Assembly (NCBI GenBank): GCA_000004985.1
Contig: GG739190.1
DNA: 4,214 nucleotides
Direction: 5' to 3' (one strand)
Source of the DNA: Naegleria gruberi
Taxonomy: Eukaryota
Shown here piece after piece: positions 1-4,214 of this stretch. The position numbers and the translations under genes were made by a program. The notes under the pieces were generated by a model. The model was not told where the DNA came from and did not search any database. It saw only the letters and a list, made by a program, of their open reading frames with translations. The first letter of the stretch is position 1. Each line of letters opens with the position of its first letter.

Positions 1-196
1 TCATGTAGGTTTTGGAGAATATGAATTGGTGTTAGAATTAGAGTTTTTTAAAATATGGGTTAGAGTTGGCTTTCAACCAACACGAATATATGACAAATAA
101 AAATTTAGCTTGTTGTTGTTAAAAATTCTTGTTTTATTTTTGTGGGTTGGAAGCAAGCTGGAAAGTGGGAAATAAATTTTTTCCTCAACTGATGGG

Positions 197-204
197 TAAT
201 CTAG
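197..204. repeat. Left copy of putative 8-bp target-site duplication, TAATCTAG
   Basis: Identical 8-mer in direct orientation immediately outside both TIRs (197..204 and 4014..4021). The identity does not extend to a 9th base on either side. Confidence 0.7.
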
Positions 205-218
205 CGGGGGGAGACAAC
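205..218 (+). repeat. Left terminal inverted repeat, CGGGGGGAGACAAC
   Basis: Exact reverse complement of 4000..4013 (GTTGTCTCCCCCCG), 14/14 matches. Similarity stops at the inner edge: 219/3999 and 220/3998 mismatch. Confidence 0.8.
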
Positions 219-285
219 CTGACTTCAACTACCACTAGGGAGGGTCATTTCCCGCCTTTCCTTTTTTGTCATATGATCAACAACT

Positions 286-292
286 AAATATT
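286..292 (+). promoter_or_regulatory. TATA-like element TAAATAT about 165 bp upstream of the ATG, inside the transposon 5' region
   Basis: Sequence only. Position is compatible with an internal element promoter. There is no transcript evidence. Confidence 0.15.
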
Positions 293-440
293 CAAATAAA
301 AACATCAGATTACCAACAACCAACAACAAAACACACCAAACCATGATCCTCTCCGCAGTTACTGAACATCTAACTCATGTTCGATTCATATTTTGGTTGT
401 TCGAGTATTTGTTGGAACTGAATCAACGTTAAAAACAATT

Positions 441-456
441 CAATCAATAAAAAAAA
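441..456 (+). promoter_or_regulatory. A-rich translation-initiation context (CAATCAATAAAAAAAAA-ATGG), yeast/eukaryote-like Kozak leader
   Basis: A run of 9 A precedes the ATG and a G follows at +4. There is no Shine-Dalgarno-like purine-rich GGAGG upstream. Confidence 0.3.
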
Positions 457-3400
457 ATGGGTCGATCATCATTCAAAGTTGAAATAAATAAAAATTGTTT
501 GGGGATTACTGATTATGATAAATTCGATATATTATTGGATGTTGAAAAGAACAAAGTAATGGATGGAAGTGGGAAAATAGCTGGCACTATTGTAAATAAA
601 TGTTTACGTTCTATTGACTGCACAAAAATTCACAACAAAAACAGAAAATCTGACTCGTGCGTGAAGTGTTGTGATTTGAAAAGCAAGCTAGATACAAATC
701 TCCAAAAAGTTCATAAAATTCTAGAAAATCCAAATACTCTTCCTCCTTATTCATCCATAATACCATATCCTCAAGTCATGTATCAACTATTACGTGAAAC
801 TACGAAAGCTTTGGGAAAGTGTGAGCCCAGTAACTTTGAAACAAAAATAATAGAATCATTAAGGAAGGCCAAAGCACAATATGAGATTAATTCAAGTCTT
901 AAATCAAAACATATTAAAATGAACAAAGATCCAACAATTGAAAATAAGCAATGTGAGCAAGAATTACTAGAAAATGAGCAAGAATTAATTGAAAATGAGC
1001 AAGAATTCATTGAAAAAGATACTGATCAATCCAAACAATCCAAAAAAACTGATAGATACACACACATTCCACCTCAAAAACAAAATCCATTATCATCCAA
1101 AGGTTTTGGAAAATTCGAGGAATGTTTTTTTGTAAAATTTCTTCATAACCAATTAGAAAATTTCACTCTACCCCCAAATGCTCACAGATATGATGAAGTA
1201 ATGAAACGGTATTGGTTTCTTGGGAGGTATTTTAGTGGAAAGCAATTTTTCAATCAACTATCCGGTAAAAAGAATCAACAAATTCCTTGTAATTGGAGAA
1301 CAAATCTGCAATACAACATAGTGATGCCAAGTAACAACACCATGAAAAACTGGTTACCAAAAGGAAGCATTGGAATATGTACATATTCTGATTCAGTATT
1401 CAATAGTTTAGAACCTAATTCGTGTAAAGAAGTATGTGTTTCAATGGATGGAATGAAGGTTCTGAAAAAATTGGAAAGAATGAACGGTCAAGTAATTGGA
1501 ACATCTCAAAAAATTAATGTGAAAACACCACCATCCAACCATAATATCAACCTTAGTGAAGTTACTGAAGAAATGGTACTTTTTAATGTTAATGCAATAG
1601 ATAACAGTTGGCATTGTCCTTTAGGATGGTTTGCTATATCTTCTGCTGACAAAATTAATGACTTCATTTACGAAAAAATGATATTATGTAATGAAAAATT
1701 AAAAGGTTACTCTCTAAAAATGGTGTGTGGATGTGCAGATGGTGAGGCAGATGCTAAAAATTTGCAGAAACTTTTACGAGAGAAAATTGATCCAAATTTC
1801 ATATTTGTGACTGATTATGTACATAATTTCAAGAATCAAAGAAATTGTTTGTTCAATGGGACAATTTTGAAAAACATTAATATGTCAACACTTATTAAGT
1901 TGATGAATAATTATCCACATCTATATGAAATGCTGGATAAAGAAGAAGTCTCACCCTCAGATATTATGGCTATTAATCCATGTCTTGAACTGACCTCTCC
2001 AAAAGTAGTAGAAGTGTTAAAATCACTCAGAAATAATGATGCTGCCATTTTGGCTAAATATTTAGAAACTATTCGAGAAGTGTATGATGTCATTAATGAT
2101 AATGATGTTGACATTGTTGATAAATTAGAATTATGTAAAGAATATTTTTCAAATATTCCTGCCAAGCAATATCCTGAAAAAACTAGAAACATTTGTCTTC
2201 ATACTATTGAAGGATTTCAATATCTTGCAAATACCTATTCAAATTTTAGACCAAGTTGTATAACAACTAATTATAATGAGCTAATGTTTTCCATTATTAG
2301 AAAGAGGTATCCACGAGCCACAGCAAAGCAATTCTGTTCATCAATATTAATTGCCTTCTATATTTTCCTATTAACATCTTGCTCAGAAGAGGTGAGAGGA
2401 TTTTCTCTTCCTGAAACGGAATGGACTGAGCATTATAGAGGAATGAAACTTAAAATTAAGTCTCTCCCAAATCTGAAAAATATTGATCCGAATTTTGTAG
2501 AATTAACTAAAGATGAAATTAATGCATTAGATAAATGGTTGACTAAGGTAAATCATAATATTGAAGGATATGTACGTAAAAGTACTCTCAGAATGGAATC
2601 ATGTGCCCCTAAAAAATTATTCCTTTGCTGCCCAATTAATGGATGTGATCGTCAAAAACCTTATATTGTGAAAGGCCAATTCAAGAATCATCTATTATCC
2701 AAGCACTCTGATAAAATAACTAGTGAACAACAAGCTATATCTGTAGTTAGAGAATTAGAGTGCAAACATTTTGAATTACAGTTTTTAGCTGATTCTGAAG
2801 TACGAAAGAACAGTGTTAACCTTAATAAGCAAGAAAGAGAAAAAATATGTGAAGAATCTTCTATATCCAATAAGTCACAAGACACAATGAGTACTCTTAC
2901 ACAACTGTCAATAAGGGACTCCAGTACGTGTGATGGTTCGACACGTACAACCATTCAACAACCAACCAATCAAATAATTACTCCTCAACTTAATAATAGT
3001 AATGGTATTGAAAAATATTTGGTTTCAAAGTATTTGAATGAAACTAAAATTCACATAGATATTAGCAATGATGATATTGTAGAGAGCGTAATATCTGTGA
3101 AAAATAATGAAAATTATCATGTTGTTGTCTTAGATTTAGAAACTACTGGGCTAATGCCAAATGACCATGAAATAGTGCAAGTGGGAATGATTTCATTAAT
3201 TTCCAAATGTGCATTTTCAATATATATTAAACCAAAATACCATGATTGGAGTAGTCATGCTAAAAAATTACATGTTGACAAAATGAATGAAATCAATAAT
3301 GGAAAACAATTAGACCAAATTATCATTCCAATCCACAATTATTTAACAAAGAACAATAGTTGTACTGCTGTTGTATTGGTACATTCAACATCATTGGACA

Positions 3401-3864
3401 GAAATTTCCTCATGAAAGCATTGACAAAACATGGCTTACCTATTGATAGGTACATGATAGTGAATACTATAAGCGAAGAATTCTTCCCTAAGCAGAAACT
3501 TGAAACACTGTTCAACCAAGTGAACAAGCCAATGAATACAACAACAAAAGATATAATAGGTGTTGCACATGATGCAGCCTTTGATACGGCCATGTTGTTT
3601 GATATAATCAAACACAAATTTGGAGATAATATTGATGGTGTTTTAGAAGCATGTATGTGCTTTCATGGTCGTCTGTGTGGTGATAAAAAGAGGAAGAAAC
3701 CTAATCATGATATTAACACAAAGAGAAAGAAGAAGAAGACAGAACCCAATACAAGTTCCGATCATTTTTTTAAACAATCACAAATAATAGAATTTATTCC
3801 CTGGACACCAGATACCAACAAAAATACAACCCGACAAAGGAAAACGAGAAGAAACAAAAAGTGA
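457..3864 (+). CDS. Transposase-like multidomain protein (1135 aa) with zinc-finger modules and a C-terminal DnaQ/epsilon-like DEDDh 3'-5' exonuclease domain
   Basis: Uninterrupted 3,408-nt ORF. An in-frame TAA at 448..450 lies just upstream of the first ATG, which sits in the A-rich context AAAAAAAAATGG. The ORF ends with TGA at 3862..3864. It lies entirely between the TIRs. Recognisable exonuclease motifs and zinc-finger spacing are present (see domain features). Confidence 0.85.
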   Translation: MGRSSFKVEINKNCLGITDYDKFDILLDVEKNKVMDGSGKIAGTIVNKCLRSIDCTKIHNKNRKSDSCVKCCDLKSKLDTNLQKVHKILENPNTLPPYSSIIPYPQVMYQLLRETTKALGKCEPSNFETKIIESLRKAKAQYEINSSLKSKHIKMNKDPTIENKQCEQELLENEQELIENEQEFIEKDTDQSKQSKKTDRYTHIPPQKQNPLSSKGFGKFEECFFVKFLHNQLENFTLPPNAHRYDEVMKRYWFLGRYFSGKQFFNQLSGKKNQQIPCNWRTNLQYNIVMPSNNTMKNWLPKGSIGICTYSDSVFNSLEPNSCKEVCVSMDGMKVLKKLERMNGQVIGTSQKINVKTPPSNHNINLSEVTEEMVLFNVNAIDNSWHCPLGWFAISSADKINDFIYEKMILCNEKLKGYSLKMVCGCADGEADAKNLQKLLREKIDPNFIFVTDYVHNFKNQRNCLFNGTILKNINMSTLIKLMNNYPHLYEMLDKEEVSPSDIMAINPCLELTSPKVVEVLKSLRNNDAAILAKYLETIREVYDVINDNDVDIVDKLELCKEYFSNIPAKQYPEKTRNICLHTIEGFQYLANTYSNFRPSCITTNYNELMFSIIRKRYPRATAKQFCSSILIAFYIFLLTSCSEEVRGFSLPETEWTEHYRGMKLKIKSLPNLKNIDPNFVELTKDEINALDKWLTKVNHNIEGYVRKSTLRMESCAPKKLFLCCPINGCDRQKPYIVKGQFKNHLLSKHSDKITSEQQAISVVRELECKHFELQFLADSEVRKNSVNLNKQEREKICEESSISNKSQDTMSTLTQLSIRDSSTCDGSTRTTIQQPTNQIITPQLNNSNGIEKYLVSKYLNETKIHIDISNDDIVESVISVKNNENYHVVVLDLETTGLMPNDHEIVQVGMISLISKCAFSIYIKPKYHDWSSHAKKLHVDKMNEINNGKQLDQIIIPIHNYLTKNNSCTAVVLVHSTSLDRNFLMKALTKHGLPIDRYMIVNTISEEFFPKQKLETLFNQVNKPMNTTTKDIIGVAHDAAFDTAMLFDIIKHKFGDNIDGVLEACMCFHGRLCGDKKRKKPNHDINTKRKKKKTEPNTSSDHFFKQSQIIEFIPWTPDTNKNTTRQRKTRRNKK
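601..672 (+). other. N-terminal Cys/His cluster (C49-x5-C55-x3-H59-x8-C68-x2-C71-C72); possible zinc-binding or DNA-binding module
   Basis: Spacing read directly from the translation CLRSIDCTKIHNKNRKSDSCVKCC. It does not match the THAP or BED consensus exactly. Confidence 0.3.
955..1017 (+). repeat. 3 x 21-bp in-frame tandem repeat encoding acidic heptads EQELLEN / EQELIEN / EQEFIEK
   Basis: The units are 955..975 GAGCAAGAATTACTAGAAAAT, 976..996 GAGCAAGAATTAATTGAAAAT and 997..1017 GAGCAAGAATTCATTGAAAAA. A partial fourth unit lies upstream at about 934..954. Confidence 0.7.
1414..1956 (+). other. Candidate RNase H-like (DDE-type) transposase catalytic region containing a [C/D]xxH motif (D453-Y-V-H456, nt 1813..1824)
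   Basis: Candidate first-D contexts are VCVSMD331GMK (nt 1447..1449) and NAID382NSW (nt 1600..1602). The candidate second D is CAD428GEAD432 (nt 1738..1752). About 25 aa downstream lies KIDPNFIFVTDYVHNFKN, which resembles the [C/D]xxH block of hAT/Mutator/P transposases; Mutator-like elements (MULEs) have FPN...CxxHxxxN here. The third acidic residue is not identifiable by eye. Confidence 0.35.
2626..2706 (+). other. C2H2-like zinc finger (C724/C725-x4-C730-x14-H745-x4-H750)
   Basis: Translation is LCCPINGCDRQKPYIVKGQFKNHLLSKH. This is Cys2-His2 spacing with a slightly long 14-residue spacer, where the canonical spacer is 12. Confidence 0.5.
2857..3006 (+). other. S/T/N/Q-rich low-complexity linker (aa about 801..850), likely disordered
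   Basis: Translation is SSISNKSQDTMSTLTQLSIRDSSTCDGSTRTTIQQPTNQIITPQLNNSNG. It separates the zinc finger from the exonuclease domain. Confidence 0.5.
3109..3636 (+). other. DnaQ/epsilon-like DEDDh 3'-5' exonuclease domain (aa about 885..1060); catalytic residues D893, E895, D981, H1038, D1043
   Basis: Motif I is HVVVLD893LE895TTGLMP (nt 3133..3141). Motif II is VVLVH976STSLD981RNFL (nt 3382..3399). Motif III is GVAH1038DAAFD1043TAMLF (nt 3568..3585). Spacing is I to II 88 aa and II to III 62 aa, matching E. coli DnaQ (about 91 and 64). The segment FSIYIKPKYH also resembles DnaQ FHVYLKPDRL. Confidence 0.8.
3685..3861 (+). other. Basic C-terminal tail with bipartite NLS-like clusters (KKRKK-x7-KRKKKK and RQRKTRRNKK)
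   Basis: Translation is DKKRKKPNHDINTKRKKKKTEP ... TRQRKTRRNKK. Two K/R clusters lie at nt 3685..3741 and a terminal basic decamer at 3832..3861. Confidence 0.45.
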
Positions 3865-3999
3865 TTTTCTATGTAATATACTTGTTGTTTTACTAGGGTG
3901 GTACATTCTGTTTCATGTATTGTGGTGTTGTTCACTATGAAGCAAATATTTTTTAGTCCCGATTAGGAAGGTTTCTCAGAGTACCCTCTGTTAGCACGA

Positions 4000-4013
4000 G
4001 TTGTCTCCCCCCG
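4000..4013 (+). repeat. Right terminal inverted repeat, GTTGTCTCCCCCCG
   Basis: Exact reverse complement of 205..218. Confidence 0.8.
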
Positions 4014-4021
4014 TAATCTAG
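4014..4021. repeat. Right copy of putative 8-bp target-site duplication, TAATCTAG
   Basis: See left copy; 8/8 identical and in direct orientation. Confidence 0.7.
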
Positions 4022-4214
4022 TGAACGTAAACCACACCAGCAAACAAACCAGCTAGAAATTGCCAGCTATGGGTTACCTTTAATTTTGTAAAGAAATGCC
4101 ATTGATTACAACAGAAAATTTCAGAAGAGAATTTGGTTTTATTTTCACTATTTATAAAGCGAATATTTACACTCTAGATTTTTCTTAGGTTTGTTGTTGT
4201 TGAGCAAATTTTCA

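Follow-up and report, generated by a model that had tools for sequence, protein, structure and literature searches.

The question raised by contig GG739190.1 of Naegleria gruberi (assembly GCA_000004985.1), a small scaffold of 4,214 bp that we analyzed in its entirety and refer to as the window, is whether the segment from 205 to 4013 is a complete mobile element and, if so, of which kind. A first-pass annotation had read it as a complete cut-and-paste DNA transposon whose limits, 14-bp perfect terminal inverted repeats (TIRs) with a flanking 8-bp target-site duplication (TSD), bracket the only long open reading frame (ORF). Our analysis makes it highly probable that 205-4013 is one complete, apparently autonomous cut-and-paste transposon of the P superfamily, inserted at a TAATCTAG target. 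The superfamily and the fusion of its transposase to a DEDDh-type 3′-5′ exonuclease are additions to what that annotation contained.

Direct reading of the window bore out the proposed ends, with every coordinate correct. The left arm (CGGGGGGAGACAAC, 205-218) has its exact reverse complement (GTTGTCTCCCCCCG) at 4000-4013, and TAATCTAG stands in direct orientation at 197-204 and 4014-4021, abutting the outer side of each arm. The pair does bracket the only long ORF of the window (457-3864). The inverted repeat is perfect for 14 nt, and further in the two ends share weak, gapped similarity. Formally the direct repeat is 9 nt long (GTAATCTAG, 196-204 and 4013-4021), because G196 equals the last TIR base, G4013, by chance; the 8-bp solution is preferred since the TIR then stays symmetrical and since a relative in Naegleria lovaniensis has 8 bp. 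An insert-free target site would read CAACTGATGGG-TAATCTAG-TGAACGTAAACC.

The TIR alone is weaker evidence than the first-pass annotation had thought. Its chance estimate of about 0.03 was too optimistic, because a perfect 14-nt inverted repeat of any composition was present in 23% of 2000 Markov-1 shuffles of this 32%-GC window. An 8/8 agreement between the abutting flanks has a probability of 4.5e-5 and brings the joint chance with the TIR to ~1e-5, and the earlier judgment that coincidence becomes very unlikely once the direct repeat is counted was upheld. When the real window was scanned for perfect inverted repeats (10 nt or longer) abutted by a direct repeat of 6-10 nt, a single configuration emerged (205, 4013, 8), and the same loose scan found a direct repeat of at least 8 nt in 7 of 3000 shuffles. 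The 8-mer could conceivably be the edge of a larger duplication, or could come from faulty assembly of a small scaffold derived from repeats: the window spans the whole of a small, unplaced scaffold, a kind that often consists of repeats. However, the flanks outside the 8-mers are unrelated, and similarity between them ends at the 8-mer apart from the one coincident G; the TIRs and TSD lie ~200 bp inside both scaffold ends; relic copies (below) never reach into the flanks; and the same architecture occurs in an independent genome, that of N. lovaniensis. We therefore consider a duplication or artefact extremely improbable.

The bracketed ORF corresponds to N. gruberi NAEGRDRAFT_54887 (EFC35489.1 / XP_002668233.1), which is annotated as 'predicted protein' and has no introns. 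To place it, we used relatives from an exhaustive HMMER search, which returned 60, with 26 of these aligned and 13 trimmed to their cores. The Pfam family PF21787 (TNP-like_RNaseH_N), which we take to represent the P-element/THAP9 family, matches aa 321-433 of the window ORF at 22.9 bits, just below the cut-off of 24.6, and is matched (E ≤ 0.01) by 16 of the 26 aligned members, several of them above the cut-off and up to 51.8 bits. When compared with the PDB, the profile of 26 relatives retrieved the Drosophila P transposase 6P5A (E 3e-8), as did the profile of 13 trimmed cores (E 6.5e-9), and 6P5A was the only transposase among the PDB matches of these two profiles. P transposase was not retrieved from the PDB by a profile built on the four close homologues only, and a search with that four-sequence alignment brought back only the same three proteins. 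The HMMER alignment sets the family motif "slDEieir" on "FDEMKV" of P (D230; D331 in the window protein), "fDyvHlvKnlRN" on "SDTPHLIKLVRNH" (the SDTPH region; D453/H456) and "TnvvEnfFSivR" on "QDIVEHFFGSMR" (E531; E608). Eleven positions, namely D331, D428, D453, H456, K459, R462, N463, E608, F611, S612 and R615, do not vary among the 13 relatives, whose identity is 16-47%.

The predicted fold agrees with this placement. An AlphaFold2 model based on the 26-sequence alignment has a mean predicted local distance difference test score (pLDDT) of 75, with the core above 90, and its top Foldseek matches in the PDB are 6p5a_A and 6pe2_A (E 1.2e-12, TMt 0.69, 475 columns). The model carries a helical insertion between D428 and E608, and the Foldseek alignment covers nearly the whole 6p5a chain. 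The transposase core of the element is thus of P-element type. The P superfamily makes 8-bp TSDs, with 7-8 bp next to TIRs taken as its range, and P, hAT and Kolobok are related superfamilies. As 8-bp TSDs are common to P and hAT, the duplication does not discriminate between these two, and a hAT transposon would further share with P its short TIRs, the C/DxxH signature and the helical insertion domain; the hAT transposase Hermes is among the Foldseek matches (E 2.7e-4), and one distant family member has a zf-BED match. The Hermes match is nevertheless poor (TMt 0.23, root-mean-square deviation 29.9, versus a TMt of 0.69 for P transposase), PDB profile searches reach only P among transposases, the 26 members lack the hAT dimerisation domain (PF05699) or any other hAT Pfam match, and the motif around the catalytic glutamate, (V)ENFFSxxR, is that of P (IVEHFFGSMR). 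A hAT origin, which we rejected on the fold and on the absence of hAT Pfam domains, is very unlikely.

An exonuclease-bearing Kolobok element of the KolobokD type also calls for scrutiny. Kolobok elements have the C/DxxH signature in common with P, and PMC9587614 reports Kolobok_1/2_NaeGru from N. gruberi together with KolobokD, a lineage that encodes a DEDDh (DnaQ) exonuclease. Kolobok is defined by 4-bp TTAA TSDs and 5′-RR...YY-3′ termini (PMC9587614), whereas the TSD here is TAATCTAG and the termini are CG...CG. The seven reference Kolobok cores that we took from Data S5 of PMC9587614, Kolobok_1_NaeGru included, all match the Mutator-like family PF20700 (E down to 3.5e-57; 6 of 7 exceed the curated cut-off) and in no case PF21787, whereas the window family matches PF21787 and never PF20700. 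The CCHC finger that follows the first catalytic aspartate in KolobokD (PMC9587614) is missing from the window-family alignment. Kolobok and KolobokD were accordingly rejected on TSD, termini and Pfam discrimination, and the chance that the element belongs to them is minimal.

The second enzymatic domain lies at the C-terminal side of the P-type core, from which it is separated by a C2H2 finger, a long helix and a disordered linker. Pfam PF00929 (RNase_T/DnaQ-like exonuclease) matches aa 890-1047 at 24.7 bits against a cut-off of 24. In the PDB, the family profile matches the PolC exonuclease of Thermotoga maritima (E 3e-22), Escherichia coli epsilon (E 4e-12) and Cas2-DEDDh (E 5e-11), and Foldseek matched the fold to TREX1/2, RNase T, DnaQ and the DinG exonuclease domain. 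The residues of Exo I (D893-x-E895), Exo II (D981) and Exo III (H1038-x4-D1043) are all invariant and, judged by its sequence, the DEDDh active site is intact.

Relatives in other genomes bear on both the ends and the architecture. The homologue in N. lovaniensis (L001, contig PYSW02000070.1) is 37% identical to the window protein and has TIRs of ~170 bp at 5882-6055 and 9130-9292, made of 16-nt and 144-nt arms that are each 100% complementary with a small indel between them; they include the first 55 nt of the annotated coding sequence. These TIRs end in CAGGGAGGGTGAGCC, with CAGGGAGGG as the G-rich terminus, and are directly flanked by ATATTCTC, a perfect direct repeat of 8 bp, at an unrelated site among ordinary genes. 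Since this homologue has its own TIRs and a different 8-bp TSD, it gives independent support to the TIR/TSD reading of the window. The C(A/G)GGG terminus is also found at the right end of a metagenome copy, L002 (CGGGGGTGGAGATC). The proposal of a complete cut-and-paste transposon is thus supported by the P-element-type DDE transposase (named for its Asp-Asp-Glu catalytic triad) between the ends, by the N. lovaniensis homologue, by other relatives with the same CGGGG terminus in unrelated flanks, and by two decayed copies (below) whose resemblance to the window is lost before position 4013.

Closer copies are fragmentary. A second trace in N. gruberi, the 185-aa protein EFC35356.1, is 99% identical to aa 35-211 and lies on a different, 1820-bp scaffold. 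A 1134-bp contig from ENA metagenome ERZ929261 (L004) has 90-94% nucleotide identity to the window with frameshifts and with internal deletions of window 1646-3031 and 3391-3778, and the match is lost at about window 3996, short of the TIR; a close relative of N. gruberi in the environmental sample would seem to carry a dead derivative. Naegleria fowleri (L005, VFQX01000022.1, ~7113-9531) holds a decayed, internally deleted relic that is split over three frames, lacks roughly aa 340-398 and 552-853, and has in part been annotated as hypothetical protein FDP41_001138. The relic agrees with window 3958-3999 in its 3′ subterminal sequence but differs in the terminal 14 nt. In L004 and L005 alike, similarity stops short of 4013 and never reaches the flank; the extension into flanking DNA that the first-pass annotation had named as contrary evidence was not seen in these two decayed copies. 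The G-rich terminus is missing from the left end of L002 and from L004 and L005 at their 3′ ends, and we treat these as ends of decayed or truncated copies.

P-type transposases have repeatedly been domesticated, as in THAP9, and the ORF could by this precedent be an immobile host gene whose TIRs and 8-mer are ancient relics or coincidence. One full copy is seen, 36-40% identity has been kept across Naegleria-clade homologues, and the N. lovaniensis copy sits among ordinary genes, all of which would fit a host gene. Perfect TIRs and an 8/8 TSD in non-coding, AT-rich DNA argue instead for a recent insertion. In the N. lovaniensis copy, which occupies an unrelated site, 144 nt of the TIR are 100% identical and the TSD, different from that of the window, is perfect too. 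N. fowleri, with nothing but the decayed, internally deleted relic, shows what is expected of a transposon rather than of a conserved host gene, and the metagenome copies are internally deleted or multicopy. Domestication is accordingly quite improbable, and an inserted P-type element remains our preferred explanation.

More distant relatives extend the architecture beyond the Naegleria clade. A multicopy relative in a bog metagenome (L007-L019) has the same transposase-exonuclease architecture and is ~18% identical to the window protein. The C(A/G)GGG terminus is present here too: the left boundary (CGGGGTGCTGAC) stays sharp in 7 different flanks, and the right end reads ...GTCAGACACCCG (ends for example at L008 958-978 and ~5110-5124), and a right-end scan added 2 more loci. 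All seven left flanks end in TA and all four right flanks begin with TA, a dinucleotide that could belong to the TIR or reflect a preference for certain targets; contigs of such a multicopy repeat may also be chimeric. The same domain order is present in P0016, P0020, P0033 and P0027, the last from the transcriptome of the amoebozoan Soliformovum irregulare, and a core-only relative is found in Pompholyxophrys. The fusion therefore recurs in a second eukaryotic supergroup, Amoebozoa, and in metagenomes. No convincing TIRs were found on L020, the contig of the distant relative P0041, and a search of metagenome contigs for related loci with alignment A1 gave 358 pattern matches, none encoding a relative. 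Directly downstream of a 3′-truncated copy of the bog element, L007 carries at 4411-8655 the polyprotein of a Ty3/gypsy-type long terminal repeat retrotransposon (RVT_1, RNase H, rve and chromo domains), an arrangement that suggests nested or neighbouring repeats of a eukaryotic genome.

Several observations weigh against the assignment of 205-4013 to a complete P-superfamily transposon. Taken alone, the window ORF falls short of the Pfam threshold for PF21787, and neither the ORF nor the 26 aligned members gave a match to a THAP, GBD or P C-terminal domain in Pfam. In the two bog contigs that have both flanks, a clean 8-bp TSD is missing (L008 matches at 7/8 with an offset of 1 nt, L010 shows none), and the length of the TSD may be non-uniform across the wider lineage. 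Furthermore, the sole sign of a second N. gruberi copy is the protein fragment EFC35356.1, which could be an assembly duplicate or a haplotig.

The remaining domains of the protein are distributed around the core and the exonuclease (Table 1). The N-terminal domain has conserved C14, C53, C67 and C70 in a C-x38-C-x13-C-x2-C spacing, unlike C2CH, and the window ORF has no match to THAP (PF05485) at E ≤ 1; we regard the domain as a putative DNA-binding domain with no recognisable THAP. The coiled-coil-like region that follows (~aa 105-197) sits at the place of the leucine zipper of P transposase. Within its long predicted helix are three in-frame 21-bp tandem units (window 954-1019, TGAGCAAGAATTA[C/A]T[A/T]GAAAATGA), which encode the heptads EQELLEN/EQELIEN/EQEFIEK; this heptad insert is missing from the N. 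lovaniensis and L002 homologues (alignment columns ~226-280). In the C2H2-type finger, C725, C730, H745 and H750 are invariant in the alignment, and zinc-finger proteins match these profile positions. As regards the GTP-binding insertion domain of the P superfamily, the model has the helical insertion between D428 and E608, and no PF21788 match was found among the 26 members; the protein may depend on GTP. The C-terminal tail is rich in Lys and Arg over aa 1081-1135 (KKRKKPNHDINTKRKKKK ... RQRKTRRNKK) and is missing from the three closest homologues; it is probably a nuclear localisation signal.

Outside the ORF, the 5′ subterminal region presumably holds the promoter and transposase-binding sites. 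A motif at 234-243, ACTAGGGAGG, is found again at 3892-3901 as ACTAGGGTGG and is similar to the terminus in N. lovaniensis. That terminus, CAGGGAGGGTGA, resembles window 232-244 (CTAGGGAGGGTCA), 27 nt inside the left end of the N. gruberi element, and the subterminal motif (AGGGAGGGT) may be a transposase-binding motif shared by the two. Short CAACAA/TTGTTG-type runs at window 100-125, 276-330 and 4186-4203 lie on either side of the element and also within its 5′ untranslated region; they appear to be simple-sequence composition typical of the genome, separate from the element ends.

Table 1. Features of the Naegleria gruberi element and its protein, with positions in the window
Feature	Position	Strand	Basis or remark
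Left TSD copy, TAATCTAG	197..204	.	Identical to 4014-4021
Left TIR, CGGGGGGAGACAAC	205..218	+	Exact complementarity with 4000-4013; C(A/G)GGG terminus common to relatives
5′ subterminal untranslated region	219..456	+	Shared words
Single uninterrupted ORF, 1135 aa, stop codon included	457..3864	+	Transposase-exonuclease fusion
N-terminal Cys-rich, beta-rich domain, ~aa 12-75	490..681	+	Alignment; model strands, pLDDT 66-86
Long-helix, coiled-coil-like region, ~aa 105-197	769..1047	+	Model helices 105-119, 126-155, 162-197
P-element-type RNase H-fold DDE core with all-helical insertion domain, ~aa 215-660	1099..2436	+	
Catalytic D331	1447-1449	+	DDE core
Catalytic D428	1738-1740	+	DDE core
D453xxH456 signature	1813-1824	+	DDE core
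Catalytic E608	2278-2280	+	DDE core
Conserved C2H2-type zinc finger, aa 724-750 (CCPINGC...KNHLLSKH)	2626..2706	+	
DEDDh (DnaQ/epsilon-like) 3′-5′ exonuclease domain, ~aa 886-1070	3112..3666	+	Pfam, profile, Foldseek
Disordered basic C-terminal tail, KKRKK...KRKKKK	3697..3861	+	pLDDT <50 over aa 1074-1135
3′ subterminal untranslated region	3865..3999	+	Conserved in N. fowleri relic (CCCGATTAGGAAGGT...CACGAG) and metagenome copy L004
Right TIR, GTTGTCTCCCCCCG on + strand	4000..4013	-	Exact reverse complement of 205-218
Right TSD copy, TAATCTAG	4014..4021	.	Identical to 197-204

Compared with the Drosophila P element and the P superfamily at large (including THAP9 and Pdre of vertebrates), the N. 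gruberi element shares the 8-bp TSD, short TIRs and a single transposase gene, and its protein shares the RNase H-fold DDE core with a helical insertion domain (best structural match 6P5A), a coiled-coil region upstream of the core, and D...D...DxxHxxKxxRN...(V)ExFFxxxR motifs that align with D230, SDTPHLIKLVRN and E531 of P. There are also differences. The TIRs of the Drosophila P element are 31 bp long and begin with CATGATG, whereas those of the N. gruberi element are 14 bp with a CGGGG terminus. Unlike P transposase, to which it is ~16% identical, the N. gruberi protein has no detectable THAP domain, nor a Pfam GBD or P C-terminal domain, and it carries a conserved C2H2 finger after the core and a fused C-terminal DEDDh exonuclease, with no introns in its gene. 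The THAP domain, although typical of P and THAP9, is not regarded as obligatory for membership of the P superfamily. We class the element as a P-type transposon of ordinary mechanism whose accessory domain has been little documented.

Precedents for such an accessory nuclease come from one brief mention and from two other superfamilies. The literature speaks of a "DEDDh nuclease in P" in one sentence, which names the same combination and cites a meeting report in which sequences, hosts and architecture are all absent; within the literature searched, a fusion of P transposase and DEDDh is described nowhere else. The fusion has thus been mentioned once and never properly described. KolobokD likewise belongs to a DDE cut-and-paste superfamily related to P and encodes a DEDDh/DnaQ-type exonuclease, which its authors propose to degrade the 3′ ends of transposition intermediates (Kojima & Bao 2022, PMC9587614). 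KolobokD differs in its TTAA TSDs, RR..YY termini and PF20700 cores, and it is found in molluscs, arthropods and cnidarians. Dada elements combine a DDE transposase bearing a DxxH signature with a DnaQ-like 3′-5′ exonuclease in the same polypeptide, and the exonuclease has been proposed to process cleaved 3′ ends (Kojima & Jurka 2013, PMC3706591). However, the Dada exonuclease is of the DEDDy type and lies between the second D and DxxH, whereas that of N. gruberi is appended C-terminally, and Dada has short TSDs and targets small-RNA genes.

The steps of binding, excision and staggered insertion can be drawn from the established biochemistry of the P element. The single 1135-aa protein would bind the G-rich ends through its N-terminal Cys-rich domain and/or its C2H2 finger. 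The RNase H-fold site formed by D331, D428 and E608 would then excise the element and join its 3′-OH ends to target DNA, with the two strand transfers staggered by 8 bp, and host gap repair would subsequently make the 8-bp duplication. The element is apparently intact and probably still mobile, although we infer its current mobility from sequence features. As for the exonuclease, its DnaQ/PolC-like affinities suggest DNA 3′ ends as the substrate. Drosophila P transposase cuts with a long 3′ stagger, and because of this the most economical role would be the trimming of 3′ single-stranded ends that result from staggered P-type cleavage, at donor flanks or on intermediates. Such trimming would aid donor repair or end processing. 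Both role and substrate are proposed here by analogy and from domain affinities, and an RNA-directed role, as for ERI-1, is possible.

A more far-reaching proposal, which we consider doubtful, is that the exonuclease is obligatory for the transposition chemistry in a deep P-type branch that crosses supergroups (Heterolobosea and Amoebozoa), acting either in overhang removal or in an ERI-1-like blunting of RNA interference (RNAi). If true, the overhang-removal version would describe an element that repairs its own excision site, and in the ERI-1-like version action on small RNAs would blunt RNAi silencing; either would amount to a transposase with a built-in second nuclease activity. To our knowledge, no function has been shown experimentally for such a second nuclease in any eukaryotic cut-and-paste transposon.

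The window provides a clean, apparently intact P-type reference copy from a free-living heterolobosean amoeba, with exact ends, a TSD and an intron-less ORF, and it sets right how NAEGRDRAFT_54887 and its counterparts in N. lovaniensis and N. fowleri are annotated. A conserved transposase-DEDDh fusion is now documented, and this compact, single-protein element would be a convenient system in which to test such a nuclease in cut-and-paste transposition. The parallels with Kolobok and Dada suggest that DNA transposons have recruited 3′-5′ exonucleases several times.

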